A stretch of 64,000 nt of DNA from Bythopirellula sp. (lineage in GTDB: Bacteria; Planctomycetota; Planctomycetia; Pirellulales; Lacipirellulaceae), in contig OZ244170.1 of assembly GCA_965216565.1 (NCBI GenBank), positions 2,368,001 through 2,432,000 of the forward strand, in the 5' to 3' direction. Under the pieces are notes generated by a model. The model saw only the letters and a list, made by a program, of their open reading frames with translations, was not told the DNA's origin and made no database searches. A program made the translations under genes and the position numbers. Shown in pieces: positions 1 to 30,465 of this stretch (positions within the stretch are counted from its first letter, which is position 1; the number at the start of each line of letters is the position of its first letter).

Positions 1-531
1 TGGCGAAAGCTGTTCGATAAAGATGTCCTCACCCGAAAGTGAGCAGACAACCGGCGGACCACAACGTTCGGCAATCATACGAGCCAGTCCGAGCATCATC
101 GAATTCGAGAGGTGCACCACGTCCGGCTTGACTTCGTCAATCAGCCAATCGACGAGGGCTTCCAATTCCTTTAATTGATTGCCACTTTCGCCACGTAGCA
201 TTGAGACAGTCAAATCGCCTAACTGACTAGGATCGACACTGTCGGCCCGCCCCGATAATTGCCGCAGAATGGCAGGATGATCGAGCCAGCGATCTATCCA
301 CCTCGGCAGGTGACGAAACAATTTCCACTTCTGCTGCAGGTAGACGTTGATTCCCCCAAAGAAGACGCGTTGTTCACTGACATCGGATTCGTCGGTTCGG
401 ATTGGGGTATAGATGGGGACTAATACGACGTCCTCGCCCATCTTCAGCATTTGAGCTGCCAAGGTGTTGTCGTGCAGACAACTGCCGCAATACATTCCCG
501 CGGCACCAGCAGCTAGATAGGCGATTCGCAT
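1..531 (-). CDS. Glycosyltransferase family 4 protein (N-terminal part; runs off the window edge)
   Basis: Not in the ORF track. Translated by hand from ATG at 531: MRIAYLAAGAAGMYCGSCLHDNTLAAQMLKMGEDVVLVPIYTPIRTDE..., a GT4-like N-terminus carrying a CGSC motif. Confidence 0.7.
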   Translation of the reverse strand, partial: MRIAYLAAGAAGMYCGSCLHDNTLAAQMLKMGEDVVLVPIYTPIRTDESDVSEQRVFFGGINVYLQQKWKLFRHLPRWIDRWLDHPAILRQLSGRADSVDPSQLGDLTVSMLRGESGNQLKELEALVDWLIDEVKPDVVHLSNSMMLGLARMIAERCGPPVVCSLSGEDIFIEQLSP

Positions 532-579
532 GAGAATGACTAACCACAGAGGCTCGAAGGGCACGGAAACTACTTGATA

Positions 580-2139
580 CTAAGAAGCCTCGGAAAAAAA
601 CTTTTCCAGGGTCGCTGCTTTCGGACGCTTAGTAATCAGAGAGACAGCAACTAATGCAATGGTCGAAGCAGTAAATATGGCGGCTACTGGCATGATTTCG
701 TAAACGCTTTCGCCAAGAGAAATGTTCAGAGAATATGTGCGGTTCTTTCCAAACCCAGATAGGTAGAACAAATAACCCCATGTCGTGGTGGCCGCCAATA
801 TACTGGCAATGGCTCCGGCCTTGGTGAGGCGTTGCCAATAGACAGACGCAAATATGAGAGGAAACAGAGAGGAAAAACCAGAGAAACACCAAACCGCCAA
901 GGCGAACACACTGCGGTTGTTCGAGAGACTCATCAGATAGGTCAGTATGACAATGCAGATGATGAATCCTCGCGTAGTTACCACTTGGCCGCGATCGCTG
1001 AGAGGTTTGCTTCGATAATGGTTCACAACATCAGTACTAAACATGGTCCCCAGACAGAGGAACTGACTATCCAGGCTAGACATGATCGCTGCTAGAATTC
1101 CCGCAGTGAGTAGCCCCCCCAACACCGGCGTGGTTTGGGTTTTGACCAAGAACGGTAGAATCGCGTTTGGATTCTTCGGCAGAGGAGGTGCGGAAGGGAC
1201 CAAACTCGTTGTGGCCCACACTCCTACTAGGACGCAAGGCACCCAGACGATCATGATAAATAGCGGATGAGCCACGACAGGAAGCTTGAATGAGTTGGCA
1301 CTCTTGGCAGTCAACCAATGTTGAAACAAGTGGGGAAACATACCTACGGATAGCGGTATGAGCATATAAGTGAAAAACTTTGTCTTCGACATCTCTACTC
1401 GAGTAGCTTTGTCGAGTGGAATCGCTTCACCGAGTATCTCCAAGTTCTCAAACAGAGTCGACTTGCCACCCAGTTTATTGGCAATCACGCAAAAGGTGAC
1501 AATTCCGAGCACCATGAAGACCATCGTTTGAAAGGCATTGGCCCACGCAGTCCCCCGCATCCCCCCCATAAACACGTAGCAGAGGACAACCAAACAAATT
1601 ACCAACGAACCAATTTGCGGCGGGACACCGCCATGGGTGGCGGGACTATCAGTGGCAAACATCGCCAAATCGGGATACGCGCCGGCTGTCATGCTCTGGA
1701 TGACAATTCCCCCGGACATCACTCCGATCAACAAGTAAGGAATCACCAATCCCACGAGGATAGGAAACAACAGAATCCCGATAAAATCACTGTCGAGCCT
1801 TTCTCGAAAATACTCGATTTGCGTCGTGTAGCCATGCTCTTTCGCAATGGCCCAGACTTTCACCCCGATTAGGAAGAAGCAAAGGGAATGAATAATTCCG
1901 CTTGAGGAGGCTAACATTCCATAGACGCCGATTCCTTCTTTGAATGCTTCGCCGCTCGATCCCACCAAAGCAAAGGCTGTCATCGTCGTTCCGAATAACG
2001 ACATGAGCAACAGGAACGGCCCAATCGAGTGACTCGCTAGTTGGTAATCTGATTTTGTCCCAGAAAAAAACCGACTCGCCACGTAACCCAGTAAGAGCAG
2101 TAATCCCAAATAACCAGCGATAATCCAGAGCTGCGTCAA
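580..2139 (-). CDS. Sodium:solute symporter (SSS) family transporter
   Basis: 519 aa with many TM helices; SSS-like segments GGMRGTAWANAFQ and LAAIMSSLDS. Confidence 0.9.
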   Translation of the reverse strand: MTQLWIIAGYLGLLLLLGYVASRFFSGTKSDYQLASHSIGPFLLLMSLFGTTMTAFALVGSSGEAFKEGIGVYGMLASSSGIIHSLCFFLIGVKVWAIAKEHGYTTQIEYFRERLDSDFIGILLFPILVGLVIPYLLIGVMSGGIVIQSMTAGAYPDLAMFATDSPATHGGVPPQIGSLVICLVVLCYVFMGGMRGTAWANAFQTMVFMVLGIVTFCVIANKLGGKSTLFENLEILGEAIPLDKATRVEMSKTKFFTYMLIPLSVGMFPHLFQHWLTAKSANSFKLPVVAHPLFIMIVWVPCVLVGVWATTSLVPSAPPLPKNPNAILPFLVKTQTTPVLGGLLTAGILAAIMSSLDSQFLCLGTMFSTDVVNHYRSKPLSDRGQVVTTRGFIICIVILTYLMSLSNNRSVFALAVWCFSGFSSLFPLIFASVYWQRLTKAGAIASILAATTTWGYLFYLSGFGKNRTYSLNISLGESVYEIMPVAAIFTASTIALVAVSLITKRPKAATLEKFFSEAS

Positions 2140-2345
2140 TTGCCGCTCCTTTTCGCATCGTCGATCTTAGGCCAATAGAACTTGATCGCCCAAAACCAAA
2201 GTGCACTTGCAGCAATCGAAATACAGGTGTGGTAAAAGAGCCCCACTGGCAGGAAGCCGAAGACCAACCGATCGTCCGTCCAAAACCAATTGTCTTGGTG
2301 CAAGACAATTAGAACTAAGACCATTGCCCACAATTTCACTGGCAT
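2136..2345 (-). CDS. DUF3311-like small membrane protein (SSS partner)
   Basis: MPVKLWAMVLVLIVLHQDNWFWTDDRLVFGFLPVGLFYH...; two TM segments; its stop overlaps the SSS start (TTGA); start trimmed from the ORF track. Confidence 0.7.
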   Translation of the reverse strand: MPVKLWAMVLVLIVLHQDNWFWTDDRLVFGFLPVGLFYHTCISIAASALWFWAIKFYWPKIDDAKRSGN

Positions 2346-2481
2346 CGAAGGTAGATCGCTTGGTTCGGAGGGCCGGGTGGGTCCTAGGACTGAGCCGAAC
2401 GAGAAGTTCGATCGTCCACTACGCTGGTCACAAGCTAGCAGATCAAGCACAAGAATTGAAGACCGGGCCACTCGTGGCCCA

Positions 2482-3720
2482 TTAGTCCGGCAAGCTGCCG
2501 CCGCGATTGCGGATCCAAGGATAAAGATCCTCAAATATTTCTCCGGTGCGGCCACTAAAGACTCGTCCAATCAGCAAATCGACCAACTCTTCCTGATGGT
2601 GCGGAAACTCTTGCAAGAACCGGCCGACGCGAAACTCTCCCGAGTAGAAGGCATGAACAAGCTTTCGAATCAATCCAGTCTGCTTAGAAAACTCGGGCAC
2701 CCATGACCCGAGCGCGTTGGCAGTTGTGTCGTTGTTCTTAATCGCACCAATAATACAATCTGCGGCGAGTTCCCCCGACTTTAACGCGAAGTAAACGCCC
2801 GAAGAATAGACAGGATCAATAAATCCCCAGGCATCTCCCACCAATACCCAACCGTCGCCGGCAGAACGACTGGTCGTATAAGAAAACTCTTTGGCCACCT
2901 TCATTTCGTTAACAGGCTCTGCTTCGTGAAGCCAACAACAAAGTGTGGGACACAATTGCTGCTCTTCTTCAAATACTTGCTGGGGTGTGCCGCGTCCTTT
3001 CAGTAAGTAGTCTCGGTCTCCCACCACGCCGACACTCACCATATTGTTGGACTGAGGAATGTACCAGAACCAGGATTTCTTTTCTGCGGTATGCATAATA
3101 ACTGTCTTCACACCGCCGCCAGCCTCGTCGCGATAGGCTCCGCGATAGTGGCACCAGATGGCTGCTTTTTTCAGATGAGGATTGACGGTACGCAATCCCT
3201 TCTTTGTAGCGACGACCGACTGCTGGCCGCTGGCGTCGACGATCACCTGCGCATAGATTTCTTGAATTTCGCCTGAAGGTACTTGAACCTTCACACCAAC
3301 CGCTCGCTCATCTTTGAAGATCACATCGACCACGCGCGTTCGATCCTGGCAGGTCGCTCCGAGGGACGCCGCATTCTCGAATAACATCTGGTCAAACTCA
3401 GCACGATCTACATGCCAAGTTTGTGTAGATTCGTGCGGATCGTGATTGCGGAAAAAAAACGGTGCCGATTCTTTACCCGCGTCGCTGACAAACTGAACGC
3501 CAACTTTTTGAGACCAAGCACTCTGCTTGAGCCGCTCGAGAACCCCAAGCCGTTGGAAAACCCAATACGTCTCCGGCATCAAGGACTCACCCACATGTTG
3601 GCGGGGCATAGACTCACGTTCGAGCTGAAGAACTTGAAAACCACCTTGGGCAACGAGGGCGGCTGTCGTTGAACCCGCGGGGCCGCCGCCAATGACAATG
3701 CAGTCGTATTGAGAATTCAT
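2482..3720 (-). CDS. FAD-dependent oxidoreductase, flavin-dependent halogenase-like
   Basis: GGGPAG FAD motif, WFWYIP (WxWxIP), FIDPVYSSG (FxxPxxSxG), and a Lys in QKVG at about the catalytic-Lys position. Confidence 0.75.
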   Translation of the reverse strand: MNSQYDCIVIGGGPAGSTTAALVAQGGFQVLQLERESMPRQHVGESLMPETYWVFQRLGVLERLKQSAWSQKVGVQFVSDAGKESAPFFFRNHDPHESTQTWHVDRAEFDQMLFENAASLGATCQDRTRVVDVIFKDERAVGVKVQVPSGEIQEIYAQVIVDASGQQSVVATKKGLRTVNPHLKKAAIWCHYRGAYRDEAGGGVKTVIMHTAEKKSWFWYIPQSNNMVSVGVVGDRDYLLKGRGTPQQVFEEEQQLCPTLCCWLHEAEPVNEMKVAKEFSYTTSRSAGDGWVLVGDAWGFIDPVYSSGVYFALKSGELAADCIIGAIKNNDTTANALGSWVPEFSKQTGLIRKLVHAFYSGEFRVGRFLQEFPHHQEELVDLLIGRVFSGRTGEIFEDLYPWIRNRGGSLPD

Positions 3721-3742: not shown

Positions 3743-4267
3743 TCATGAGAGGGCGATTTCCAGTAACTCCACCAGAACTTCGCCCTCCATCAATATCCTA
3801 GCAGTGCGACCAAAAACGGGAACCTCCGGATTGCACAAGAGATGGGTCTGCAACTCCTCCCCCGGTTGGACACGCCAGAGCTGGCACAATTCAACTTCTC
3901 GCAACAAATGATGACGAATCATGATTCGCCCTAAGGGCAATGCGCGCGATTCAATCTCCATACGAACAATTTCTGGCAGGCTAGCCAGATTAATCCGCAT
4001 GATCCCAAATTGCACAGGAGTTCCGTCGCGTTGGCGAGTTAAAACGATCCGCCGCGCGTATTTGTCCTTTTCTTGGACGGCTTCCAAGACATGAACGTCA
4101 ACCAAGCTATTGTGCCAGGCCTCGACGGTCACCGTCATATGATCAGTATGAGCTAGGAGTGAGGCGTACTGCTGTGATAGCTCGTCAGCCTCGACAGGCG
4201 TGAACTCTCCCACCTTATCGCGGGAAGAATAAAACTGCTTGATTAATGAGTCGAGTTGATCGTCCAC
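3743..4267 (-). CDS. Chorismate-pyruvate-lyase (UbiC/UTRA-fold)-like protein
   Basis: 174 aa; HMTVTVE, YARRIVL, ALPLGRIM and FGRTARI segments match the UbiC-like pattern. Confidence 0.55.
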   Translation of the reverse strand: MDDQLDSLIKQFYSSRDKVGEFTPVEADELSQQYASLLAHTDHMTVTVEAWHNSLVDVHVLEAVQEKDKYARRIVLTRQRDGTPVQFGIMRINLASLPEIVRMEIESRALPLGRIMIRHHLLREVELCQLWRVQPGEELQTHLLCNPEVPVFGRTARILMEGEVLVELLEIALS

Positions 4268-4338: not shown

Positions 4339-6225
4339 CTAAGTGGGAAGCGTTGGTTGAATGATGTTCAGTTGCGCTTCGGCAGGCCGTTCTAGTACCG
4401 TATCGACCAAATAGTAGAGTAAGCGACGAAGATTGTCTGGCGAAGTATCATCGGCAATTCGTTCGGCGCGTTCCTGGTACTTGTCGACTAAGGCATTGGC
4501 TTTTTCGAATACATCGGCTTGGCGGTAAAGGTGCTCGACTCGCGACAAGCGTTTCGTTGAATCTTCGGTTGAGTTGGCTAGCTCGATTAATTCCTGCTGA
4601 TCTGCGTTGGACAATTCTTCCAAGGCTAGGGCCCACAGTAGGGTGGGGCGACCCGCCAGTGCATCGAGCCCCGCAGCCAGCTTATTGTCTTGATCTCCCT
4701 GCCAATCTTTTAAGTCGTTGAGAATCTGAAATGCGATGCCCATGTACTTGGAAAACTGCTTCATCGGCTCGGCCAATTCACCCAACGGACCGGCACAGCG
4801 AAGTCCTCCCAGCAAAGCAGCTTCAAATGCTGGGGCCGTCTTAAGGGCATAGATTTTCAAGGCATCCAGAGGCGCGAGACGTTTGTCGTGCGAGTCTCTC
4901 CACAACAGTTCCGCGCCCTGACCCTCCGACAACCGCAAATGGGCATCCGCCAATTGGTCTAGTACGTCGCAAACCACTTCCGTCCCCAAGCTGCCCGATT
5001 CTCGACTGACAAGACGATATCCCAAACCGATCATGTAATCGCCGACATTGATGGCCGTGGACACTCCATGTTGACGATGGAGTGTTGGATTTCCATAGCG
5101 GAACTCATCGCCATCCTCGATGTCATCGTGCACCAGCGAAGCTTTGTGAAATGTTTCGATCGACAGAGCCACGCGGCGGACAGCGTCTGGTAGTTCGGCC
5201 AAATGCTCGGCCCCGGTGGGCAGCGTCCCTTCGCCGCCGGTCATCGCATCGTAAGCGGCCAGGGTGATGAAAGGCCGGGCATATTTGCCGCCTTGGCCAA
5301 GAAAATCTTGAGAGATCGTCTCCGTAGCGGCGATGGGATCGAGTCCAGCGGCGCCCTGACCATTGACTTCAACCAGGCTAGGTCCGCCCCGCTGTCGGGG
5401 AGCCAATCGCTGAAGGGTCGCGGGTTCAAACAGTCCTTTCGCTTCTCTCAACAAATGTAAATACGTGCTGCTCCGTTTCGGTGCCTGATCTTGTCGCACA
5501 TGAATCATCTCGTGTACCCAGTCTTCATCCACAGACGTATTTCGACAATCGCTGGAGAGAAGCGGCACCGCCATGCAAGGAATGCCAGCCAGGAGTACCT
5601 TGTCGATGGCTTTCTCAAGCACATTCAAGCAAGCCACGCCGACGATGGCATCGACATAGCCGCTGACAATGATTTTCATCACGATGGGAGAGCCTTCGGC
5701 CACAAGCACCTTGTAGCCCATCTCTTCGCCGATTGTTCGATAGTCGGCAATGCTGCATGCCCCACACTGCTTGCAGTCGAGGCCAAACTGATCGTAATCG
5801 GCCGGACAACCCTCGGCATGCTTCAGACAATGGGGTAGCAGGAGCAAACGACGCGAAGGCGGGACCGCAGCAACTTGATCTCGCCAAAACTCCGAGGCGA
5901 GCACCACCATCGTCCAACCGAGCAGTCCCTCGGGGAGTTCGAGTTCGTCGAGAATCTTTCGAGAAACCCACTCCAGGTCGTCCTTGGTGGGTGAAAGATC
6001 GGCGTCCATCTGCCGCGACACTTGTTGGCAGTGCTCGCGGAGGCGAACTCGTAGCTCCAGAGATTCCGGAACATCCTTAAGATGACTCGTGCGGCGACGA
6101 TTGCCACGGGCAGTCGAGTTAGCAGCCCGCCCCGTGGCAGACTGACTGGGGAGGGTCAGCTTATCAGACAACAACGACACCAACTCCTCCTTTCCGTTCG
6201 AACGTCGTCTCGTGCCCTGTTTCAA
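4339..6225 (-). CDS. DUF116 domain fused to a polyprenyl diphosphate synthase
   Basis: Cys-rich DUF116-like part (LLPHCLK, CKQCGACSI, GVAC); trans-IPPS part with GGKYARP, LVHDDIED, GQGAEL, KTA and ILNDLKD. Confidence 0.85.
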   Translation of the reverse strand: MKQGTRRRSNGKEELVSLLSDKLTLPSQSATGRAANSTARGNRRRTSHLKDVPESLELRVRLREHCQQVSRQMDADLSPTKDDLEWVSRKILDELELPEGLLGWTMVVLASEFWRDQVAAVPPSRRLLLLPHCLKHAEGCPADYDQFGLDCKQCGACSIADYRTIGEEMGYKVLVAEGSPIVMKIIVSGYVDAIVGVACLNVLEKAIDKVLLAGIPCMAVPLLSSDCRNTSVDEDWVHEMIHVRQDQAPKRSSTYLHLLREAKGLFEPATLQRLAPRQRGGPSLVEVNGQGAAGLDPIAATETISQDFLGQGGKYARPFITLAAYDAMTGGEGTLPTGAEHLAELPDAVRRVALSIETFHKASLVHDDIEDGDEFRYGNPTLHRQHGVSTAINVGDYMIGLGYRLVSRESGSLGTEVVCDVLDQLADAHLRLSEGQGAELLWRDSHDKRLAPLDALKIYALKTAPAFEAALLGGLRCAGPLGELAEPMKQFSKYMGIAFQILNDLKDWQGDQDNKLAAGLDALAGRPTLLWALALEELSNADQQELIELANSTEDSTKRLSRVEHLYRQADVFEKANALVDKYQERAERIADDTSPDNLRRLLYYLVDTVLERPAEAQLNIIQPTLPT

Positions 6226-6302: not shown

Positions 6303-8255
6303 TCAAACTGCACTCGAAACCCTTGTCTTCTCTGCTTCCTGCGTTAGTTCTCGCCTGGCTCGGGCTAAGGCGCTCGAGGCAAAAATAAGCGGATACAGAC
6401 GCTCATAATACCACAACTTGGCGAAGTAGAAACCTATGGGGGCAGGCTCTTTGTGACGGTTCTGCTCGACGGCGTCGATCAACCAGGAGACTCCATGCTC
6501 GACGGCAGTTCGGAATTCCGGCTGGCGATCCACGAAAGGCAACAATGCCTCGATGGCCAGGGCGGTTTCTTCCACGCTGGGTGCAATTCCAGATTCGTTC
6601 ATTTGCTTGAGCAAAATTGGCTTCTTAGGCAAAGCGGTGCCCCAGGCGCCACTCGCATGCTGAACACTCGCCAGCCACTTGGCCGCACGCACCGCCATCT
6701 CTGTGTCGCACCATCCCAGGTCTCGGCACATCTGCAGCACTTTGGAAGTCCCATAGACAGGATTCTGTTCGGCCATGTGATGTTGATTGCCAAACCACAA
6801 GGGCAGGAAGCTACCGTCTGTTTGTTGCTGGCGTCCAAGATATTGAGATCCCAACGAGACAGCGCTGGAAACTCGCCGTGCGAATGGCTTGTTGGATTGT
6901 GAAAGATTGAGCAGAAGCTTCCAAGTGTTGAGCGCTCGCATGGCGTGGGCGGTGATATCGGTGCTGCTGCGGTCAAATGGCAATCGCCCCCAGCCCCGGC
7001 AGAAGGTCGGCCAACCGCCATCCTTATTCTGTATTTCCAAGAGCCACTTCACGCCAGCTCGGGCAGCAGTTTTGATTTCCGAGTCGCGAATCTCAGGCCA
7101 CCGACGGTTCCAAGCTGCCAAGGCTAGTAAGGCAGCCGCCGTATCGTCTGCATCGGGGATCCCACCGGACAGATCGGTCCAAGCCCAGCCACCTGGCAGC
7201 GCTCCCGTCGCTCTATGAATCTCCTGATGTTGACACGAAAGCAACCAATCAAGCGATTGGTGCGCCTCGGCCGAGGGTCCTCCCGTTTGGTAAGCATCGT
7301 CCTCCAGCTTCCAGTTGAGCGCTGTCAGCGTCTGGGAACTGTTCCAGGTAGCAAGATTGGAATCAATAGGCCAACTTCCATCTTCCCGGACCGAAGAGAG
7401 CAAGAATCGCACCCCGCGCCGTACCACCGGATGTTCGACCAGTCCCATACTCGAAAGACTCATCACTACAAAGCTTGTCAGCGGCGTGGCTTCCAGGAAA
7501 CCTCCCGAAGCGGGTTGCATTTCGTTCAGGATTTCCAAGCTGCGATTCTTGGCCGCAGTGCGTAACCAGCGCACTAATGGGTTGCGAGGCGCTGCGTGGT
7601 GAAAGCGAGCTTGCCCAATTGCTACCAGAGCCGGCAGGGCATAGCTGACGACTGGTAAATTCAAATGATGATAGAGTCGCTGCGGCAGGCAGGCCAGTTC
7701 AAAAGGCAACGCGGGAACCTTGCGCCACGGCACCATATCTGCAAGTGCACAGTTGGTAAGAATCGGTACCGCGAAGGTCTTGTCGCCGGCGTATCGCTGC
7801 TTGAGCGCCGGCAGACCTCCCTGAGCCGCGACATATTGTGCGGCTCGCGCCATCAGATCGTTGTACTTGGCTGGCACACCCGTTAGCTGAAATGCCGCCT
7901 GAACCAACATCGTGGTTGCGATATTCGACAGGCTTTGATCAGTATCGCCCCAGCCGCCATCCTCATTTTGTTGCCCAGCCAGCCAGTGCAACGAATGAAC
8001 GATTAGCTCGCTCAAATCTCCCTGATAAATTTCGTGGAGACTATCCTCAGAGCTTCCAGGAGAATAGGCAGGCAACCCGCAGCTTGTGCCATTCTGTTCC
8101 GCTAACACCAGTGCGCTGATGGCTGTAGCCGTAGAGAGCGGTGAACTCGACAGACGACCAGCCCAAAATCCGCGCGCATTTCGCTCCTCGAGCAGGTCAT
8201 TGCGAACAGATAGATGGGCGGCAGCTAACCGCTCAGTATCAACAGGGGAAGTCAT
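6303..8255 (-). CDS. Squalene-hopene cyclase-like class II terpene cyclase (prenyltransferase/squalene oxidase repeats)
   Basis: DADDTA (DxDD) motif; QW repeats QNEDGGWG, QPASGGF, REDGSW, QNKDGGW, QTDGSF, QHASGAW; ATG at 8255 chosen as start. Confidence 0.85.
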   Translation of the reverse strand: MTSPVDTERLAAAHLSVRNDLLEERNARGFWAGRLSSSPLSTATAISALVLAEQNGTSCGLPAYSPGSSEDSLHEIYQGDLSELIVHSLHWLAGQQNEDGGWGDTDQSLSNIATTMLVQAAFQLTGVPAKYNDLMARAAQYVAAQGGLPALKQRYAGDKTFAVPILTNCALADMVPWRKVPALPFELACLPQRLYHHLNLPVVSYALPALVAIGQARFHHAAPRNPLVRWLRTAAKNRSLEILNEMQPASGGFLEATPLTSFVVMSLSSMGLVEHPVVRRGVRFLLSSVREDGSWPIDSNLATWNSSQTLTALNWKLEDDAYQTGGPSAEAHQSLDWLLSCQHQEIHRATGALPGGWAWTDLSGGIPDADDTAAALLALAAWNRRWPEIRDSEIKTAARAGVKWLLEIQNKDGGWPTFCRGWGRLPFDRSSTDITAHAMRALNTWKLLLNLSQSNKPFARRVSSAVSLGSQYLGRQQQTDGSFLPLWFGNQHHMAEQNPVYGTSKVLQMCRDLGWCDTEMAVRAAKWLASVQHASGAWGTALPKKPILLKQMNESGIAPSVEETALAIEALLPFVDRQPEFRTAVEHGVSWLIDAVEQNRHKEPAPIGFYFAKLWYYERLYPLIFASSALARARRELTQEAEKTRVSSAV

Positions 8256-8453
8256 CGAGCCGACTGGCTCCGGGGTTGGTGGGGCAGCCGAACCAACCGG
8301 TCCGACGCAAATCAAATTTTAAGTGCAGTAGCCCAACGTGTCGAGTGCCGCGACCGCCAGCAATCGGGGGGGAAACCTTTCTGCCGCTAGTTTGATAGGC
8401 CCAAAACAGGCATAATATTTTGTATCAAAATCGTCCAAACCCAATAGGGCCGC

Positions 8454-9699: not shown

Positions 9700-10089
9700 G
9701 TGTCGTCCTACAGACTGTTTCGAGAGGCTAGCGTGGATCCATTTCCTGAAGATTGGGAACTTCTGGCTCTATTCGAGGTCGAGCCCGTGCTCACTGACCT
9801 AAACGTCCCTTGGTCTTACAACAAGCTGACGTTTGAAACTAAGAGGGAAGAATACCTTGTTCGGTGTGAGATTGAGCCAAGTTATGAAATCATTCGACTC
9901 TCATGCTGGCAGATGGGACGAGAGCTTTTCTCTCTCGACCTACACTGGGTAATTTCTTTGCGAGTGCACACGGGAGAGGGCAAAGACTACTTCGTAGCTC
10001 ACTTCCGCGACCCCAATCTTCTTCCTCTCGAATTTCATCTAAAACCCTCGGTTAGATTGCTTTGGGGAACAAGCTCTGATTGTCCTTAA
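9700..10089 (+). CDS. Hypothetical protein
   Basis: 129 aa ORF directly after the radical SAM gene, with globular-looking composition; family not recognised. Confidence 0.55.
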   Translation: MSSYRLFREASVDPFPEDWELLALFEVEPVLTDLNVPWSYNKLTFETKREEYLVRCEIEPSYEIIRLSCWQMGRELFSLDLHWVISLRVHTGEGKDYFVAHFRDPNLLPLEFHLKPSVRLLWGTSSDCP

Positions 10090-10200
10090 GCTCTACTAGT
10101 TCCCCGCCGGGGGCTTATTCCGGCTTACATCTAAACGCAATCTGCATTCGCATTGAAGCTGATTCGTCCGTGCTCGAAGCGGTTCGTGTGTTGCCTAAGT

Positions 10201-11281: not shown

Positions 11282-11315
11282 TTATATTTTTTTTTTGGGG
11301 GGGGGGTACGCGATC

Positions 11316-20131: not shown

Positions 20132-20286
20132 ACTTGCTAGTTTCTCCTCACGAGCAATTAAGTTCGTATTACGTTTGAAGTTTGATTTTAAGTCAATTCT
20201 ATAATATCAAATGGGCATAAATCGTAACCGCATCGGGACGAATCGCCAATGCGGATGGCTTTGCTAGCAGAAATGCCCAGAGCATA

Positions 20287-20982: not shown

Positions 20983-21207
20983 TCTACCTCTCCGCAAGGT
21001 TGTTGCTTCTCTTTTGTTCTCATACCCCTCCAGGCCAATCTGAACTTGGCAATTCGCAATCGCGCATTGGAGAACGGGACCGACTAATGCCGATATTCCG
21101 ATTGACACAATATCCTACCGCCGAGGGATCGGCCCTGCTAGTTTGCCCCACCGCTAGACCCGCCCATTCAGGCCCTACAGGCCGTAAACCTTCACAGGAT
21201 TCCAAGG

Positions 21208-23206: not shown

Positions 23207-23361
23207 GTTCAAAGGTCAGCAAACGTAGCCGGGCAATTCTTGAAGACCCCCTGATTGTAGCCGATCGCAGGCAAGGGACAATGTGTGGCCGTTTTCGCAC
23301 AGACTTTACGGCAACAGAAAGTTTTTCCGACGTTAGTTTGTCAGGGGGTCGTCGAACCCAC

Positions 23362-23820
23362 TCACTTGTTCAATTGCCCTTTGATCGTCTGCTGAGTTAC
23401 TTCCCACACGGCTGCCAGATGCACCAGATATTCTTTGGGACTTAAAAGTTCGTGGCTCGCGACCCGTAGCTCAAACAGCCAGCCATTGCCGTACTTGTCG
23501 ACGTTGATGGCCGAAGGATCTTGCAACAAACTGTCGTTGATGGCCACCAGCTCACCGCCACAGGGTGCGTAGAGCGAGGCTTCTGCCTTCTGGCTTTCGA
23601 TCTGCCCGATCTCTTGCTTTTCAACCAGCATCGTGCCGGGCGGATGATCCCAATCGAGGAAGTACACATCTTGCAGCAAACGGACCGCGTAGGCGGCAAA
23701 GCCAAACTGGAATCGATCCTGGCCAGCCTCCTTGGCCCACATATGATTTCGCGCGTAAAGTCGATCCGACGGAAACTCCGCCTGATACTCGCCCATCATA
23801 AAGTGCAACTCGTCTACCAT
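23362..23820 (-). CDS. Glycine cleavage H-like (lipoyl-carrier) protein
   Basis: YARNHMW, IESQKAEASLYAP (lipoyl Lys retained), INVDKYGNGWLF; no gcvP or gcvT in the window. Confidence 0.85.
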   Translation of the reverse strand: MVDELHFMMGEYQAEFPSDRLYARNHMWAKEAGQDRFQFGFAAYAVRLLQDVYFLDWDHPPGTMLVEKQEIGQIESQKAEASLYAPCGGELVAINDSLLQDPSAINVDKYGNGWLFELRVASHELLSPKEYLVHLAAVWEVTQQTIKGQLNK

Positions 23821-23848
23821 TTCTATCAAACGCTAACTTTCACTTTGT

Positions 23849-23996: not shown

Positions 23997-25301
23997 CTAC
24001 GTGTAGCGGACATCCTGGTGTTGCGGTTCAAAGAATGCGGGCAGTAAGGCATCGGCCCGCAACAGGCCCTCGCGAGTTAGCCGAATGTGATCCCCGTCGA
24101 TCTCTGCCCAACCTTGGTCGGCATAGTCCTGCCAAACGTCGGCCCACTTCTCTAACACATTCTGCCCAAACTTCTGCTGGAAGTAATTCGTATCCAGATA
24201 ACCCCGCTTCAAAAGCAGAATCATTTCCCGAATCAACTGTTGCTCCGGAGTCGTCTCCAGCGCTCGACTCAACGGCAGCTGCTCTTCTTCCAGCGAATGA
24301 CAGTAAGCCTCCCACTCCGGAAGGTTTTGGTAGTGGACCCCAGAAACATGGCCAAAACTGGCAATCCCTGTCGCCAGCAGATCGCTCCCTTGCCACAGAT
24401 TATCGCGGTAGCTGAAGATCACGCGCGTCGGATCTTTCACAAGTGTATACGCGCTAGAAATGGAGTATCCCGCATCGACAAAGCGATCGAATGCGTAATC
24501 GACCCACCGCCGCTTAGTCGGCCAGTCGGCCACGGGCGTTTCTATCTTGTTGCCTAAAATGTCCTGCGAGTAAACCGTGTTGAATGGCAGCTCCATTTGA
24601 TAAATCGTGACGCTGTCGGGCTCCATGGCCAGCGCCTGCTCGACGGCGTCCTGCCATTTGTCGTCGGTATCACCCACCATGCCCGCAATCAGATCGATGT
24701 TGACGTTGTAAAACCCAGCCGCTTGGATCCAGGGCCAAGCACGCTCGATCTCTGCCGACTCGTGGGCTCGACCATTGTTTCTAAGAATCTCGTCGTCGAA
24801 GTGCTCTACCCCCAGGCTCAGCCGCGTGACGCCCAATTCGCGGAGCGTATGGACTTTGGCCTCGCTCAACGTGCCCGGTTCGCACTCGAACGTCACTTCT
24901 TCTGCCTGATCCCAATTGATGTTGGCCTGCAGTCGTTCGACCAATCGCTTCAATTGCCGGGAACTTAAAAACGACGGCGTGCCCCCACCGAAGTACACAA
25001 ACCGAAAGGGCCGATCCCCCATCACCGGCAGCGCACTCACCAGTTCGATCTCTTTGGAAAGGGCTGCCAGATAGCGCTCTACCTCTTGCGAGTTCTTATC
25101 GGTGAACACTTTGAAGTAGCAGAACTTGCAGCGTTTGCGACAGAAGGGAATATGCAAGTACAAACCCAGAGGAACCTTTGCCGGCTGCGAAGCAAAGGCC
25201 TGTCGCACCGCTGGGAGATTCTCCTCCGACCATTGCGAGAAGGGCGGATAGTTACTGATAAAGTAACTTCCAACTTCCGTCTTTTTCGAATCTGTGGCCA
25301 T
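23997..25301 (-). CDS. HemN-like (class C) radical SAM protein
   Basis: YLHIPFCRKRCKFCYF, GGGTPS, RLSLGV, NIDLIAG. Confidence 0.9.
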   Translation of the reverse strand: MATDSKKTEVGSYFISNYPPFSQWSEENLPAVRQAFASQPAKVPLGLYLHIPFCRKRCKFCYFKVFTDKNSQEVERYLAALSKEIELVSALPVMGDRPFRFVYFGGGTPSFLSSRQLKRLVERLQANINWDQAEEVTFECEPGTLSEAKVHTLRELGVTRLSLGVEHFDDEILRNNGRAHESAEIERAWPWIQAAGFYNVNIDLIAGMVGDTDDKWQDAVEQALAMEPDSVTIYQMELPFNTVYSQDILGNKIETPVADWPTKRRWVDYAFDRFVDAGYSISSAYTLVKDPTRVIFSYRDNLWQGSDLLATGIASFGHVSGVHYQNLPEWEAYCHSLEEEQLPLSRALETTPEQQLIREMILLLKRGYLDTNYFQQKFGQNVLEKWADVWQDYADQGWAEIDGDHIRLTREGLLRADALLPAFFEPQHQDVRYT

Positions 25302-25328
25302 CAAACAGGTGCTTTCGCTCGATTCACG

Positions 25329-26474
25329 TCAATCTCTCTCGCTGCTCTCTTCGCGCGGCCCAAAGCAATACAACGTTCCATCGCTATTGGCGATCACAAG
25401 TTTTCCGTCGCTCACCGCTGGAGAAGCGAGAAAGTTCCCTCCAGCCTCATACTCCCAGTTTTGCTTGCCTGTTGCCAGTTCCAGCGAAATCAATCGGCCT
25501 CGCTTCGTGCCGAACAGTACGGAATTCCCCACGATGATCGGAGCACTCTCCACGGGCATCCGGACCGACGTGTCCCATTCTAGCTTGCCTGAGTCGGGAT
25601 TGAGAGCGTAGATTTTCTTTCCTTTGGAGGTGTAAACCACCGTTGCGTCGCTCGTGGCAGCGGAGTACGACTCCTGTTGCGAGTCGTCTTCGTAGGTCCA
25701 GGTGACCTCTAAATCGTCGATGCGATAGAATGTTCCTCCGAAGGTCCCAAAAAACATGCCTTCCTGCCATCGCGCGGGAGTCGAACCGGTTTGTCCTGCC
25801 AATTCGAAACTTTGAGTCTCCTGCCCCGTCTGCAAATCGACCGAGTGCAGTCGGCTATCGCAACCGGCGAGAAACACATTGCCGGCAACGATCGTGGGCC
25901 AGCAACGTAGCGGAGCCTCGATTTCGAACTTCCACTGCAGTTTGCCGGTGTCGGCAGCGAGGCAAATCAATTCGCCTGCCTCAGTGGTCACCAACACTCG
26001 GCCTTCATGCACATTGGGCCCGGCATACATCTCGCCGCGGGCCTCGTACTGCCAAAGCAACTTTCCTGAATCCGCCGCCAATGAGCGGAGCATGCCATTG
26101 AAATCGCCGACGAACACCTTGCCATCCACCACCGCGGCTGCCGAAATAAAGCCACTGTCTGCGAACTCTTTCTTCCACAGCAACTTTCCATCCGCGATTT
26201 TGACAGCGTAGAAAGTGCCATCCACGTCTCCTAGGTAGGCAATCCCCTTGGCAATGACGGGGGTCACCTCGAATCCACTTTCTTCGATCTCAAAACGCCA
26301 CAATTCTTTTGGCTCTTGCGAGAATTGGCCAGCGGCAGTGCCAGTCGCGGCTCGATCGCCCCGTTCGAACGGCCAATCGCCTGCTGCCGAGTAAGCTCCC
26401 AGCACAAATAGCGCGATTCCAAATAGGCTGAACAGCCGGAGCGCATCGAAAGCTGCCCAGTCACTGCGCTGCAT
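25329..26474 (-). CDS. PQQ-like (BamB-type) beta-propeller repeat protein, probably exported
   Basis: Repeated xDGKLLW/TGKLQW blades; hydrophobic leader before WPFERGD; start uncertain (ORF is open to 26591). Confidence 0.85.
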   Translation of the reverse strand: MQRSDWAAFDALRLFSLFGIALFVLGAYSAAGDWPFERGDRAATGTAAGQFSQEPKELWRFEIEESGFEVTPVIAKGIAYLGDVDGTFYAVKIADGKLLWKKEFADSGFISAAAVVDGKVFVGDFNGMLRSLAADSGKLLWQYEARGEMYAGPNVHEGRVLVTTEAGELICLAADTGKLQWKFEIEAPLRCWPTIVAGNVFLAGCDSRLHSVDLQTGQETQSFELAGQTGSTPARWQEGMFFGTFGGTFYRIDDLEVTWTYEDDSQQESYSAATSDATVVYTSKGKKIYALNPDSGKLEWDTSVRMPVESAPIIVGNSVLFGTKRGRLISLELATGKQNWEYEAGGNFLASPAVSDGKLVIANSDGTLYCFGPREESSERD

Positions 26475-26574
26475 GAGAAATGGACCGTCCGCGCTAGCCA
26501 CGGGTGCCTCGCCCAGGCTTACACTATCGGCAACTGACGCTCGTGCGTTCGGATTCTCGATTTGAGTATCTACT

Positions 26575-27723
26575 CTAGTAAGCTTTTTCATATAGACCGA
26601 GCAAGTCGTCGACGTCGACGGCGATTGGATTGAACGTGGCGGTCCACTGCTTGGCAGCTTCTTCCGCGAGTGTCGCTAAGCTCTCTTTCGGCACTTCCTT
26701 CTCTTGCAGTGTACCGGGCAGCCCCGCCTGCGTGGCGATCGAGGCAAGAAAATCGGCAAGCTCTTCACTGCCACCGGAGGGACAATCCGCAAACTCGGCT
26801 GTCACCGCAAGCAGTTCTTCGTACCATGCTTCGCACTCTTTTGCGTTGAATCGCACCACCTGCGGCAACATCAGCGCAATGGCCTCTCCATGGGCAATGC
26901 CGAAGTTGGCCGTTAAGGGATTCGCAAGGGCATGGGCAGCACCTAGCATGGAGTTTTCGATCGCCACGCCCGCGCAACAGGCTCCCAACTGCATATGCGA
27001 TCGCGCTTCGATATCGTCCGGCGTTTGCAACACCTTGAGATAGTTGGGTGCAAGTTCCAGCCACGCCTCCTGACTAAAATGGCAAGAAATTTCCGTTCGC
27101 TTGGTGGTCACAAATGTTTCGACCGCATGGGAAATGGCATCGAAGCCCGAGAGGGCGGCCACACGCGGAGGCTGCGTAAGCGTCAACTCTGGATCGAGTA
27201 CCGCAATGCGAAAGGCGGCGCGTTTATCGCCACAGGCCATTTTCACGTGCGTCTCAGCGTCGGAGATCAGCGCGAACGATTGAGTCTCGCTGCCCGTGCC
27301 CGCGGTGGTGGGTACCGCAATCATGGGGAGCAACGGGCCCGTGGCCTTTCCTACACCCCAATAGTCCTGCATCCGCCCGCCACAGGAATAGAGAAAGTTA
27401 ATCCCCTTGGCACAATCCATCGAGCTTCCACCGCCAAGCCCAATAATCAGTTCCGGCTGAAACCCTTTTGCCTGTTTGAGTCCCGACTCAACGTGGTCGG
27501 TTGTAGGATTTTCCTCGACGCCACCAAAGAGCGCCGTTTCGAGACCTGCCTTCTGCAACGAGGTCAGACCCCGTTCGGTATGACCAGCCGAGATCACCCC
27601 CTGATCGCTGACAACCAGCACCCGCCGCGCTTCCAAATCCTGTGCAAAACTGCCCAGCTCATCAAGGCGGCCGACACCAAATTCGATCCTGGTCGGCGAA
27701 GCGTACTGGTCGATTTGGGCCAT
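26575..27723 (-). CDS. Iron-containing alcohol dehydrogenase
   Basis: GGGSSMD, PTTAGTGSE, DAISHAVE, HALANP...HG. Confidence 0.93.
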   Translation of the reverse strand: MAQIDQYASPTRIEFGVGRLDELGSFAQDLEARRVLVVSDQGVISAGHTERGLTSLQKAGLETALFGGVEENPTTDHVESGLKQAKGFQPELIIGLGGGSSMDCAKGINFLYSCGGRMQDYWGVGKATGPLLPMIAVPTTAGTGSETQSFALISDAETHVKMACGDKRAAFRIAVLDPELTLTQPPRVAALSGFDAISHAVETFVTTKRTEISCHFSQEAWLELAPNYLKVLQTPDDIEARSHMQLGACCAGVAIENSMLGAAHALANPLTANFGIAHGEAIALMLPQVVRFNAKECEAWYEELLAVTAEFADCPSGGSEELADFLASIATQAGLPGTLQEKEVPKESLATLAEEAAKQWTATFNPIAVDVDDLLGLYEKAY

Positions 27724-27845: not shown

Positions 27846-29270
27846 CTACTCACTATGCACCTGCAAGGCACGATTGCGATACAACAACTCGGTGAGATTG
27901 CCTTCGTGGGGTTGTAGCCAATTGAGTTGCGGAGTGGGAATCGGCCCTAGGTTGAGCCGGTCGATATGGGTGGTAGCAATCAATTGTCGGCGAAACGCTT
28001 CGTCGTCTGTAATCGCCGATGCGACTAGGGTGGGTCCAATTGAATCGAGCATCTTCGATTGCTCGCATTGCACAACGCTTACTAGCGGAAACATGTACTC
28101 TTTGTTGGCGGCCGCGCACTCGGGAGATTCGCAGTGCAACACAGTGGGACGTAAATAAGCGCAAGTTTCTCGCCTGTCTAATCGCGAACCATACTCAGCC
28201 GTGGCATGAGTTGTGCCGCTATCTTCGGCGTCGCGCTCGACCATCTTCCAAATCGCCTCAGCAACATCTGCATTGGTAAACGCCGCGAGCCCCGCTTCGG
28301 GATCCTCAGGCGGCAACGCGGTAACAGGTCCCAATCGCTCGGCAAGCGCCGCGGCAATCTCCTGTGTGTGACGCGATGCATAAATGCTGGAGCAGTTAAT
28401 ACAACTCCGCCCACCATTGCGGTAGACGCTATCGACCATCAAATCGAGATGCTGTTCCCACTCGTCGACTTTGTCGTCGCCCAACAAGATCTTGCTGAAA
28501 CCTGGACCATGCACCTGCACGCCAGGATTCCCGGCGTATTGTTGAATCGTCTGCTCCCCTCCAAAAATCATGCTCCGCCGATAACTCGCCAACAGGGCAC
28601 CTCCGACGTCCGCCCCACTACCTGGGTAAATGGAAATTGCAGCAGCGGGAATGCCGGCCTCAGTCATCGCGGCCGCCACGCGGAAGGGTGTCCAAGGTTC
28701 TTGCGAACCGGGCTTGAGCGCCAACCCAATTTGCAAAGCCACCACTGGCAGCCATAACGTATGCACGCCGGGAGAGTTTGACGGCAACACGGCACCCAGC
28801 ACGTCGGTCTGGGCCTGATAGCTCACCGTCACGTTGCGACCCTCTTCGCCATAGCCGCGGGCAAGAATGTTCAGATCAAGACCGCGCGTCAGGGCATCGA
28901 GAATTTTATCGATGTTCTTCAGCACAAACGCGTTCTTTGCCACGTTGGCCTCGCACATGGAATGCGGCATGCCTGTGGTGGCCGACTGCTGTTTGACAAA
29001 GTCGGCGGGCGACTGCGTGGAATCACCAATCTTGAGATTCCCCGACTCGAATAACTCGCCTGCTTGCTTACAACAGGCAATCAGCTCCGCAGGATTCATC
29101 TGTTGCAACGATTCACGTGCCTTGGCGGCATGTCGAGAATCACGCCGTACGATTCCCGCACCTGTGAGTCCGACGCGAGCAACAACCTCTCCCGTGAGGA
29201 AATCTATAATCTCCTCAGATTCCAAAGATTCGTAGGGCTCACCCCAACGAAGCGGAGAAAGATTCACCAT
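27846..29270 (-). CDS. Aldehyde dehydrogenase-fold protein, EhpG/acyl-reductase-like
   Basis: LPSNSP, LKPG, catalytic Cys in NGGRSC, EYMFP; HGPGFSK where hydrolytic ALDHs have ELGGK. Confidence 0.8.
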   Translation of the reverse strand: MVNLSPLRWGEPYESLESEEIIDFLTGEVVARVGLTGAGIVRRDSRHAAKARESLQQMNPAELIACCKQAGELFESGNLKIGDSTQSPADFVKQQSATTGMPHSMCEANVAKNAFVLKNIDKILDALTRGLDLNILARGYGEEGRNVTVSYQAQTDVLGAVLPSNSPGVHTLWLPVVALQIGLALKPGSQEPWTPFRVAAAMTEAGIPAAAISIYPGSGADVGGALLASYRRSMIFGGEQTIQQYAGNPGVQVHGPGFSKILLGDDKVDEWEQHLDLMVDSVYRNGGRSCINCSSIYASRHTQEIAAALAERLGPVTALPPEDPEAGLAAFTNADVAEAIWKMVERDAEDSGTTHATAEYGSRLDRRETCAYLRPTVLHCESPECAAANKEYMFPLVSVVQCEQSKMLDSIGPTLVASAITDDEAFRRQLIATTHIDRLNLGPIPTPQLNWLQPHEGNLTELLYRNRALQVHSE

Positions 29271-29334
29271 ATTTAGTACCAGTGTGAGAAACCTTGTGCC
29301 CTAAAGCTGCGCCGTCAGAAGAAGTCGCGGGCGA

Positions 29335-30465
29335 TTAATAAACCCCAACCGTTGTGGATTGTTCCAATTTGTGGAATGGCCGCACGCCGCTCACACCGTC
29401 CCACGGATACCAGTTACTCGGAGGTTCTCGCTCTCCCTCGTCCCGTTCCAGGAATCCCGGCACGAAGAATTCCTTGGTAAGTGTGGTGAGTTTGATGCGC
29501 CCTGTCTCACCGTACTCTACGAGTCGATTGGAGTCTTCGAAGTCGACGACCTCGACCACTGCGCGAGGTTGTGGCGAGTGGTAAGTTATCTTGTAACCGT
29601 TCTCTTTACTAATGGGTTCACTGCAAGCGAGCCCCATGAGCGTATTTCCGTAGGTAGGCGTCATATAGATGCCACTTTCCTGCGGCGGCCCGCCGAAGAG
29701 TTCTTCCACGCAGAACTTTGTCCACTGCGGCGTAAACTCCGTGCCGCCAGAGAATATGCCGCAGATGCCCATTTCTGCCAGGCTCGTCCCACGATCTTCC
29801 AATGCCAAGCACAGTGCCTCGATCAACTTCGGCGTGCCAAACATGCATCGAACATCGTGGCCAGCTTCGAGAATTGTAATCGCCTGATCGATGCAGTGAT
29901 TCTTATATTCCTCGAGATGCTCCATCCACCCTTTCTTTATGAGCTTCACGACCCAGCGGGGATCGAGATCGATACAAAACGAAATACCACCGCGATGTTG
30001 GGCTAAATGCTCGACTGCCAACCGCAGCCTGCGCGGACCACTTGGCCCCAACATCAACCAGTTTGCCCCAGGCGGAAAATAGCGGTCCGGCAAGGTATCG
30101 CTGAACAGCGAATAATCGGTGCGAAAATCATCAATTGAAATTCGACTCTTCGGCGTGCCCGTCGTTCCTCCAGTTTCGAACACATAGACGGGCTTGTCCG
30201 CCATGGCCTGTGGCACCCAACGCCGCACTGGTCCGCCCCGCAACCACTCGTCTTGAAATGGCTCGAACTTCTGCAAGTCTTCGAAGCAAGAAATTTCCGA
30301 CAGTGGATCGAACTTGAGCGAACGTTTCTTTTCCAGCCAAAATGGGCAGCCTGTCGCATCGTCGAAGTGCCACCGCACTGTCTTTACAGTATGAGCATCC
30401 AACAGTGCTTTGGCAGAGTCGACGCGTGTGAGCGCATCTGACTGATCGTTCGACAAAGGAGACAT
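29335..30465 (-). CDS. EhpF-like adenylate-forming (phenylacetate-CoA-ligase-like) enzyme
   Basis: RWHFDDATGCPFWL, ETGGTTGTPK P-loop, IDLDPRWV, GGTE, YG, ERD and C-terminal GVY, resembling phenazine-modifying EhpF as I recall it. Confidence 0.75.
   Translation of the reverse strand: MSPLSNDQSDALTRVDSAKALLDAHTVKTVRWHFDDATGCPFWLEKKRSLKFDPLSEISCFEDLQKFEPFQDEWLRGGPVRRWVPQAMADKPVYVFETGGTTGTPKSRISIDDFRTDYSLFSDTLPDRYFPPGANWLMLGPSGPRRLRLAVEHLAQHRGGISFCIDLDPRWVVKLIKKGWMEHLEEYKNHCIDQAITILEAGHDVRCMFGTPKLIEALCLALEDRGTSLAEMGICGIFSGGTEFTPQWTKFCVEELFGGPPQESGIYMTPTYGNTLMGLACSEPISKENGYKITYHSPQPRAVVEVVDFEDSNRLVEYGETGRIKLTTLTKEFFVPGFLERDEGEREPPSNWYPWDGVSGVRPFHKLEQSTTVGVY

Follow-up and report, generated by a model that had tools for sequence, protein, structure and literature searches.

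Two neighbouring operons of a Pirellulales planctomycete that link an aromatic-acid module with a terpenoid module

Do two operons that lie close together on the minus strand of a planctomycete chromosome, one with a terpene cyclase and a halogenase and the other with an aromatic-acid ligase, encode one pathway or two? This question is raised by a stretch of 64,000 nucleotides from Bythopirellula sp. (Pirellulales; assembly GCA_965216565.1, contig OZ244170.1, positions 2,368,001 to 2,432,000), which will be referred to as the window and which derives from a genome consisting of a single contig. A sequence-only reading of this DNA had listed 14 genes in operon A, which extends from a GT4 glycosyltransferase gene to the cyclase gene, in operon B, which extends from the ligase gene to a ferredoxin gene, and beside them, and had proposed that both operons serve one split pathway. 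All 14 genes were recovered at their places when the window genes were called by Pfam, NCBIfam and PDB sequence searches. Within the operons, the spacing of neighbouring genes ranges from overlaps to gaps of 167 bases, and the distance from A to B is approximately 12.4 kb. The chemical argument of that reading, according to which A has no acid-activating step and B no source of a substrate, holds as well. Based on gene order in other genomes, we consider A and B to be, more likely than not, rearranged halves of a gene set conserved in Planctomycetota, which likely makes a halogenated glycoside derived from hydroxybenzoate that is probably coupled to a cyclised polyprenyl lipid. Nevertheless, A and B themselves did not stand as the functional division; the true units are an aromatic-acid module and a terpenoid module, and each operon holds parts of both.

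Gene order of the two operons in other genomes

The comparison covered 61 relatives within the order and 251 genomes of the phylum outside it; orthology was assigned by tblastn with a coverage of at least 40%, and draft genomes were included, so that an absence there is no proof of absence. Outside the order, 48 ligase loci were compared. At least one gene of the A tail, consisting of the sodium:solute symporter (SSS) gene with its small partner DUF3311, a gene for a chorismate-lyase-fold protein of 174 amino acids (aa), the halogenase gene, the GT4 gene and a 4HBT thioesterase gene, was found in 30 of them, and at least three in 18. Nine of the 48 loci combined at least five tail genes with at least three genes of the B core, namely the ligase, a reductase of the aldehyde dehydrogenase (ALDH) superfamily, an iron-containing alcohol dehydrogenase (Fe-ADH), a beta-propeller protein and a HemN-like radical S-adenosylmethionine (SAM) enzyme. 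These represent a near-complete operon of 11 genes on one strand in the order DUF3311-SSS-ligase-ALDH-FeADH-propeller-HemN-174-halogenase-GT4-4HBT, for example in loci L087 and L094. Reverse best hits were determined for eight such loci only, and 79 of their 79 genes best matched the respective window gene in the source genome (8/8 for SSS, 5/5 for DUF3311 and 7/7 for the propeller). The SSS gene is located directly upstream of the ligase gene in other families, and the GT4 orthologue lies inside the fused operons there. Because tail and core are contiguous in loci outside the order and the reverse hits are complete, we conclude that they form one operon, the aromatic-acid module, which has been split in Pirellulales, and we are confident that they represent a single pathway. 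The candidate explanation of A and B as two unrelated conserved operons was rejected by this synteny. Contiguity of A and B genes in other genomes, which the sequence-only reading had named as support, was thus encountered many times, in the operons outside the order as well as in the genome and the metagenome-assembled genomes (MAGs) described below.

Within the order, the ligase and ALDH genes were adjacent in 19 of 20 Pirellulales ligase loci, the full run ligase-ALDH-FeADH-propeller-HemN was present in 15, and in six it continued into genes for a GcvH-like carrier protein and a ferredoxin-domain protein. In 20 Pirellulales cyclase loci, the gene of a DUF116-polyprenyl diphosphate synthase fusion was adjacent or one gene off in 19, and the loci also contained the 174-aa gene (16, in each directly after the synthase gene), the halogenase gene (10) and a further radical SAM gene (11). 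A genome of another family (G057) carries the genes from ligase to ferredoxin, the radical SAM gene and the series cyclase-synthase-174-GT4-4HBT-toroid with nothing between them, which corresponds to the order of the window minus the 12-kb block between the operons. A contig scan kept 80 loci, nearly all from Pirellulales, of which 47 were at least 15 kb long. The junction leading from the ligase run via ferredoxin and radical SAM towards the cyclase was present in five named Pirellulales MAG loci among these 47, in two of them (L142 and L174) through the cyclase and in three (L119, L120 and L125) as far as the radical SAM gene, where the fetched DNA ends. Since the 12-kb block is missing at this junction in G057 and several MAGs, it seems to have been inserted into a cluster that was formerly contiguous. 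The conservation of orthologues in relatives further demonstrates that the window genes are not chance open reading frames (ORFs).

Operon A continues beyond the start of the window, which cuts the GT4 gene (it extends 758 bases upstream). There follow, on the same strand as GT4 and outside the window, a histidine kinase/response regulator pair, the gene of the 4HBT thioesterase (L051:9990-10451) and that of an alpha/alpha-toroid protein of 323 aa (L051:9014-9985). Both the thioesterase and the toroid protein are members of the gene system. The toroid protein belongs to the second unit, the terpenoid module, which further comprises the cyclase, the DUF116-polyprenyl synthase, a radical SAM enzyme of the SPASM/twitch kind, the ferredoxin-domain protein and the GcvH-like protein. 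Its full form is found in other families as a tight operon of the order (NifS-like)-GcvH-like-CobW-like-118 aa-ferredoxin-rSAM-DUF116-synthase-toroid-cyclase, rSAM being the radical SAM gene. Operon A is consequently a hybrid of terpenoid genes (cyclase and synthase), aromatic-acid genes (174-aa, halogenase, SSS, GT4 and 4HBT) and again a terpenoid gene (toroid), and operon B one of aromatic-acid genes from ligase to HemN followed by the terpenoid genes for the GcvH-like and ferredoxin proteins.

The phylogenetic profiles of the 61 relatives agree with this assignment. The radical SAM gene was detected in 34 of them, every one cyclase-positive, and the ferredoxin gene in 35; both occurred together in 33 genomes, neither in 25, and only three were discordant. 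The GcvH-like gene was found in 27 relatives, all ferredoxin-positive, and five genomes with a ligase operon have none of the three genes. On account of this co-variation, the GcvH-like and ferredoxin genes belong with the radical SAM and cyclase genes of A and not with the ligase, which makes operon B composite. The 174-aa gene (54/61) and the halogenase gene (55/61) are also present in genomes without a cyclase and therefore follow the ligase; the aromatic genes are near-universal within the order, where their profile is otherwise uninformative.

The aromatic-acid module

The ligase gene (29335..30465, minus strand, with the ORF reaching to 30564) encodes an adenylating enzyme that matches the solved structures of EhpF (PDB 3hgu/3l2k) with an E value of 1.4e-41, residues 61-401 aligning with residues 29-360 of 369. 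Similarity along the whole chain, the presence of the ANL N-terminal domain only and a length of approximately 370 aa in the orthologues fit an EhpF-type ANL enzyme, as the sequence-only reading had suggested. Identity across the order amounts to 68-85%, and the near relatives of the ligase bear names such as Botrimarina, Pseudobythopirellula and Blastopirellula. A search of a representative library yielded 1357 matches at E ≤ 0.001, which were mostly fragments. Some genomes (G291, G243, G307 and G275; loci L069/L070, L072/L073, L104/L105 and L106) have a second copy of the ligase gene, and each copy belongs to a partial operon of its own, one with ligase-ALDH and the other with ligase-FeADH-propeller-GT4-4HBT. 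Ligases 67-79% identical to the Pirellulales one were also observed on contigs labelled Thermoanaerobaculia, Bacteroidota and Nitrosopumilus (L175, L185, L186, L111 and L157), which suggests that these contigs were wrongly binned or that the gene was transferred recently.

Directly after the ligase gene follows the gene of the ALDH-superfamily protein (27846..29270, minus; Pfam Aldedh, E 3.7e-24), which thereby occupies the position of EhpG. The protein retains the cysteine in a GGRSCINC motif, and the glutamate of what we take to be the usual ELGG motif is substituted; judged from these residues, the combination would fit reduction of a thioester rather than oxidation of an aldehyde. The adjacency of ehpF and ehpG in phenazine clusters appears in a table of PMC11278526, in the part of that source used here. 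The arrangement in the window resembles these genes of the D-alanylgriseoluteic acid type in the short ANL enzyme lacking a C-terminal domain and in the ALDH-family protein directly after it, but differs in the partners, which are here a chorismate-lyase-fold protein and a halogenase; no phenazine genes were detected among the 41 ORFs scanned. The B core is completed on the minus strand by the Fe-ADH gene (26575..27723; Pfam Fe-ADH, E 4e-48), the gene of a PQQ/BamB-like beta-propeller with an N-terminal hydrophobic anchor (25329..26591; Pfam PQQ_2 and Beta-prop_ACSF4) and the HemN-like gene (23997..25304; Pfam Radical_SAM and HemN_C). The HemN-like enzyme, which is of the class C type, carries the radical SAM motif CRKRCKFC and a HemN_C domain. 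It stayed under all NCBIfam equivalog cutoffs (the best score, 200 bits, was obtained for ChuW/HutW) and can therefore not be assigned to HemN, HemW or ChuW. Like the GcvH-like gene it is a divergent extra copy; a second, canonical gene with a HemN_C domain is located in another part of the genome.

In the A tail, the flavoprotein gene (2482..3720, minus) most closely resembles halogenases with a PDB entry, namely PltA (5dbj, E 1e-53), CndH (3e1t), Bmp2 (5bva), Mpy16, RadH and CmlS. The protein contains the motifs GGGPAGS (the GxGxxG motif for FAD) and WFWYIP (WxWxIP) and a lysine aligned with that of PltA, and GxGxxG, the lysine, WxWxIP and FxDPxxSxG are conserved in 28-29 of 29 orthologues. 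By every sequence criterion the flavoprotein is a halogenase, in agreement with the first call. Retained with its complete signature in marine, freshwater and soil lineages, such a halogenase would turn organohalogen chemistry from an oddity into a core trait of the phylum.

The 174-aa protein (3743..4267, minus) is of the DUF98/Rv2949c-like kind. Its AlphaFold2 (AF2) model has a pLDDT of 93.6, and Foldseek placed AF1396 of the DUF98 family (2nwi) on top with TM values of 0.72-0.78, with E. coli UbiC at approximately 0.6. According to this model the protein has the chorismate-lyase/UTRA fold, which bears out the chorismate-lyase-like call and is a fold that the effector domains of GntR regulators share. 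The orthologues have invariant Arg and Glu residues in common. On the sequence level, one result counts against the pathway that we favour: the protein scored below the cutoff of Pfam PF01947 (Rv2949c-like; 15.2 bits versus 22, E 0.021). Searches of Pfam and NCBIfam yielded no useful match, and no PDB sequence matched the protein at E values up to 10. Among 16 orthologues, PF01947 matched only two at E values up to 1.

The remaining tail genes, all on the minus strand, code for the SSS (580..2139; Pfam SSF, E 6.8e-35), for its small membrane partner DUF3311 (ORF 2136..2570 with a likely start near 2348; Pfam DUF3311, E 1.3e-9, residues 81-135) and for the GT4 glycosyltransferase, the 5′ part of whose gene occupies 1..564 and whose full protein of 440 aa matches Pfam Glycos_transf_1 and Glyco_transf_4.

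With these proteins, the following route can be proposed. The supply of 4-hydroxybenzoate would come from chorismate through the chorismate-lyase-fold protein; alternatively, an aromatic acid (or another solute) might be imported by SSS/DUF3311. The ring would receive chlorine or bromine from the flavin halogenase, and the HemN-like enzyme might add a methyl group or catalyse another radical step. The carboxylate would then be adenylated by the EhpF-like ligase and reduced to the aldehyde by the Glu-less ALDH-like partner through a cysteine thioester, and Fe-ADH would convert the aldehyde into the alcohol, which GT4 would glycosylate; the 4HBT thioesterase might have an editing or releasing function, and the anchored propeller would play a role in the envelope. 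The same enzymes could be read as salvage or detoxification, in which an imported acid is reduced and glycosylated for disposal and the terpenoid neighbours are unrelated. Such a function would be in keeping with the importer gene, which in many families immediately precedes the ligase gene, and with the resemblance of carboxylate reduction followed by glycosylation to xenobiotic handling. However, a chorismate-lyase-fold gene and a halogenase gene conserved within the operon are features of biosynthesis, and in many Pirellulales loci the transporter is not beside the ligase, so that we regard salvage as very improbable and retain a biosynthetic role of the module.

A comparable combination of enzymes belongs to the bromophenol genes of Pseudoalteromonas, to which Bmp6 contributes the chorismate lyase. 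The likeness consists in a chorismate lyase and a flavin halogenase, Bmp5, that act on 4-hydroxybenzoate (Bmp5 as cited in the available text of 10.1101/723874); the halogenase here differs in being nearest to PltA, CndH and Bmp2 in the PDB, and no P450 coupling enzyme is present. Similar by description are the adjacent genes baaA and baaB of Planctomycetales strain 10988, encoding a chorismate-lyase-like protein and a flavin-dependent halogenase, which in the same text (10.1101/723874) are proposed, without genetics, to produce 3,5-dibromo-p-anisic acid. The window holds an adjacent gene pair of the same description. As far as that text goes, two genes and an unlinked methyltransferase account for the compound there, whereas the pair belongs here to an 11-gene module linked to a terpenoid module.

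The terpenoid module

The cyclase gene (6303..8315, minus, with a likely start at 8255) encodes a two-domain protein of 670 aa of the squalene-hopene cyclase (SHC) type, in which Pfam recognised SQHop_cyclase N and C. The DxDD proton-donor motif is present as DADD, and the protein is accordingly a class II, that is protonation-initiated, cyclase by this criterion; DxDD was found in 24 of 29 orthologues. With 107 bits against a cutoff of 431 the cyclase is not a hopene cyclase by the NCBIfam hopene_cyclase equivalog, and the match to solved SHC structures reached only E 5e-16. Relatives of the source genome hold another SHC-type gene that matches more weakly.

SHC-like cyclases of planctomycetes have been described as retaining the catalytic residues and usually having a polyprenyl synthase nearby (Santana-Molina et al. 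2020, PMC7306690), and in the passages available of that paper and of a 2025 preprint (PMC12324236) the function of this clade is stated as uncharacterised. The window cyclase shares with the clade the divergence from SHC and the neighbouring polyprenyl synthase, which makes it a candidate member. In those passages there is no mention of links to radical SAM, ferredoxin, GcvH-like, toroid, DUF116 or aromatic-acid genes. As the substrate and product of these cyclases are a published open problem in the same sources, it is of value that the locus puts the cyclase into a defined gene set with a chain synthase, a radical SAM enzyme with iron-sulfur and carrier proteins, and a halogenated-aromatic module as candidate partners.

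The chain synthase (4339..6225, minus) is a fusion of DUF116 (Pfam E 1.5e-39) with a trans-polyprenyl diphosphate synthase (polyprenyl_synt, E 3.2e-41). Its first Asp-rich motif, DDIED, is conserved in 26 of 26 proteins; the second motif is here NDLKD. The form NDxxD was observed in Pirellulales loci and in G103 (18/26) and the canonical DDxxD in seven of the eight others, and this variant may, as far as the motif tells, alter the handling of the substrate. The DUF116 domain (AF2, pLDDT 83) had no Foldseek match in the PDB at E values up to 0.001, VIA-align in its wide setting returned only generic Rossmann-like matches (best Z 7.3), and an Atlas search found only DUF116 clusters.

Divergent from the cyclase gene, the SPASM/twitch-kind radical SAM gene (8454..9686, plus strand; Pfam Radical_SAM) codes for a protein with weak PDB matches to BlsE, SkfB and PqqE. 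Its identification as HpnH was ruled out with 32 bits against a cutoff of 225. The GcvH-like protein (23362..23829, minus; Pfam GCV_H, E 2.3e-20) keeps the modifiable lysine and fell below the NCBIfam GcvH cutoff (87 versus 117 bits), which the canonical gcvH elsewhere in the genome passes with 128 bits. The ferredoxin-domain protein (22133..23212, minus; Pfam Fer4 families) has a region with two [4Fe-4S] motifs at residues 207-265. Its N-terminal 200 residues belong to no family, and a stretch of 10 residues resembles the separate 118-aa protein (blastp E 0.009). Judged from this stretch, it may be a fusion with the 118-aa protein that precedes ferredoxin in other families.

In the proposed scheme, the DUF116-polyprenyl synthase would make a chain that the SHC-like DxDD cyclase would cyclise by protonation, and the SPASM radical SAM enzyme together with the ferredoxin and the GcvH-like carrier, elsewhere also with the CobW-like and NifS-like proteins, would perform a radical step, possibly an insertion of sulfur. 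A further observation concerns the genomes that are devoid of the radical SAM, ferredoxin and GcvH-like genes: in all five that were fetched (G012, G008, G005, G010 and G052; loci L035, L036, L037, L045 and L046) the first Asp of the DxDD motif is Asn, and in four of them the third Asp is lost as well, with the synthase and 174-aa genes intact. By its sequence such a cyclase may be decaying or repurposed. Since DxDD is lost in five out of five of these genomes and kept in the other 24, the radical SAM set appears tied to the chemistry of the cyclase.

Possible coupling of the modules, and surrounding genes

Whether the two modules cooperate was judged from their co-occurrence, their distance and the enzymes present. 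Within the order, the ligase was found in 54 of 61 genomes and a cyclase orthologue (best E ≤ 1e-90) in 45; both were present in 39, the ligase only in 15, the cyclase only in six and neither in one. Genomes with at least 90% completeness make up 12 of the 15 ligase-only genomes, two of these with cyclase fragments, and two of the six cyclase-only genomes. Among the 251 genomes sampled from the phylum, 50 possessed an orthologue of the ligase (identity of 48% or more) and 65 the cyclase; both occurred together in 38, the ligase only in 12, the cyclase only in 27 and neither in 174. The genes of the A tail track the ligase; cyclase and ligase are separable.

The ligase and cyclase genes are located within 50 kb of each other in seven families (G000, G009, G011 and G018; G057; G259; G164; G134 and G301; G242; G093), and in G259 and G134 terpenoid genes are placed between parts of the aromatic module. 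Fifteen genomes carry both genes on one contig that is 1 Mb or longer; in six of these the genes were within 50 kb of each other, compared to approximately 0.25 expected at random, and the six represent only three independent lineages.

Several findings weigh against a coupled pathway. Besides the genomes with one module only, in both samples, the terpenoid operon stands alone in eight genomes without a ligase, and in five families the two genes are on the same contig more than 100 kb apart (G005, G008, G012, G059, G103, G130, G155, G216, G233, G068, G236 and G126). The co-occurrence counts, moreover, ignore phylogeny, and relatives are not independent. No aromatic prenyltransferase is encoded in the cluster, and the three UbiA-family genes of the genome are all separated from the genes of the window by over 400 kb. 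In the toroid protein, two zinc ligands of the protein prenyltransferases, Cys and His, are missing: in an alignment with RabGGTase beta (E 5e-9), at the positions that we presume to be the zinc ligands Asp, Cys and His of the beta subunit, the Asp aligns and Cys and His are replaced by Leu and Tyr, by which a zinc protein prenyltransferase was ruled out. Thus neither the UbiA search of the genome nor the toroid alignment found an enzyme that joins the aromatic and terpenoid parts.

These findings are what would be expected if the modules were independent pathways whose vicinity reflects nothing more than ancestry or co-regulation, one leading to a soluble halogenated, reduced and glycosylated hydroxybenzyl compound of the baaA/baaB type and the other to a separate polycyclic terpenoid membrane lipid. 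In addition, the only compound reported for such a gene pair in the available text of 10.1101/723874 is a free aromatic acid. Nevertheless, the two modules have their genes intermixed on a single strand in each window operon as well as in G259, G134 and G242, they lie within 50 kb in the seven families in differing arrangements and far more often than the approximately 2% expected by chance, and in most Pirellulales cyclase loci the 174-aa gene directly follows the synthase gene. We therefore consider independence doubtful, yet the strongest of the alternatives, and regard cooperation of the modules as likely and not obligatory. The more specific claim that aromatic product and terpenoid end up joined is evenly balanced.

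The third alternative, built on analogy to ubiquinone, is a prenylated, ring-modified and quinone-like redox cofactor derived from 4-hydroxybenzoate. In the ubiquinone route, flavin enzymes, methylation and a chorismate lyase take part in the conversion of a polyprenyl-benzoate, and menaquinone is methylated by class C enzymes of the HemN-like kind. The cluster encodes a flavoprotein, a HemN-like enzyme, a polyprenyl synthase and a protein with the chorismate-lyase fold, and the high identity of the ligase across the order suggests a core function. However, the signature of the flavoprotein is that of a halogenase and not of a hydroxylase, no known quinone route includes a class II cyclase, a glycosyltransferase or the reduction of a carboxylate, the cluster is without a UbiA-type enzyme, and for each module there are many complete genomes that lack it. 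Such a cofactor is accordingly improbable, and the halogenated glycoside, probably coupled to a cyclised lipid, remains the preferred product.

A precedent for a joint product might be seen in the merosterols, whose cluster contains a UbiA-type prenyltransferase that is not encoded in the cluster described here. As in the proposed joint product, the class II cyclase MstE of merosterolic acid acts on a polyprenyl chain bound to a head of the hydroxybenzoate type (available text of PMC12324236); MstE, according to this text, is a monodomain enzyme with a DxD motif, whereas the window cyclase has two domains, a DxDD motif and belongs to another clade. The joint gene set was not found described in the literature searched for chorismate lyase with halogenase, DUF116, merosterol/terpene cyclase, SHC-like, EhpF/EhpG and BaaA/BaaB. 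What is in print are fragments, namely baaA/baaB and the SHC-like cyclase with its neighbouring polyprenyl synthase, and the text of a 2025 review of Planctomycetota, searched by terms, mentions only the anisic acid. The only halogenated aromatic known from a planctomycete is a possible by-product of a larger pathway that extends across the phylum.

As a tentative extension, which we hold to be rather unlikely in all its parts together, the modules might constitute a vertically inherited pathway of Planctomycetia for a new lipid class with a halogenated, glycosylated hydroxybenzyl head and a polycyclic terpenoid formed by the SHC-like cyclase, to which radical SAM enzyme, GcvH-like protein and cysteine desulfurase would add sulfur or an unusual cross-link. 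Such a lipid could serve as a surrogate of sterols or hopanoids in the envelope, with 3,5-dibromo-p-anisic acid arising from this route as a shunt product. The window itself links the aromatic-acid and terpenoid modules, and the natural variants, in which a single module is present or in which DxDD and the radical SAM set have been lost, offer ready comparisons for metabolomics.

The histidine kinase/regulator pair upstream of the window consists of a PAS histidine kinase and a response regulator of the LuxR type (L051:10933-13142) and is located between GT4 and the thioesterase-toroid pair. Its position is kept in the close relatives (L031-L036, L045 and L048), and it could be the regulator of the cluster. 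An animal-type haem peroxidase gene coding for 611 aa (L051:6100-7935; Pfam E 5e-139) lies approximately 6-8 kb upstream of the window. The block between the operons (9700-22122) consists of unrelated genes and contains MetH (13474-17184), an MsrA-MsrB fusion (17251-18402), DUF2461 (20287-21108), a gene of the nuclease/phosphatase family (11993-13318) and several ORFs without a family. On the other side, the neighbours upstream of the ligase gene (30872-34154) encode an acidic protein of 154 aa, a protein of 226 aa and an SNF2-family helicase; in 11 of 20 Pirellulales loci, as well as many named MAGs, these three are conserved at this place, and outside the order they were not found beside the ligase.

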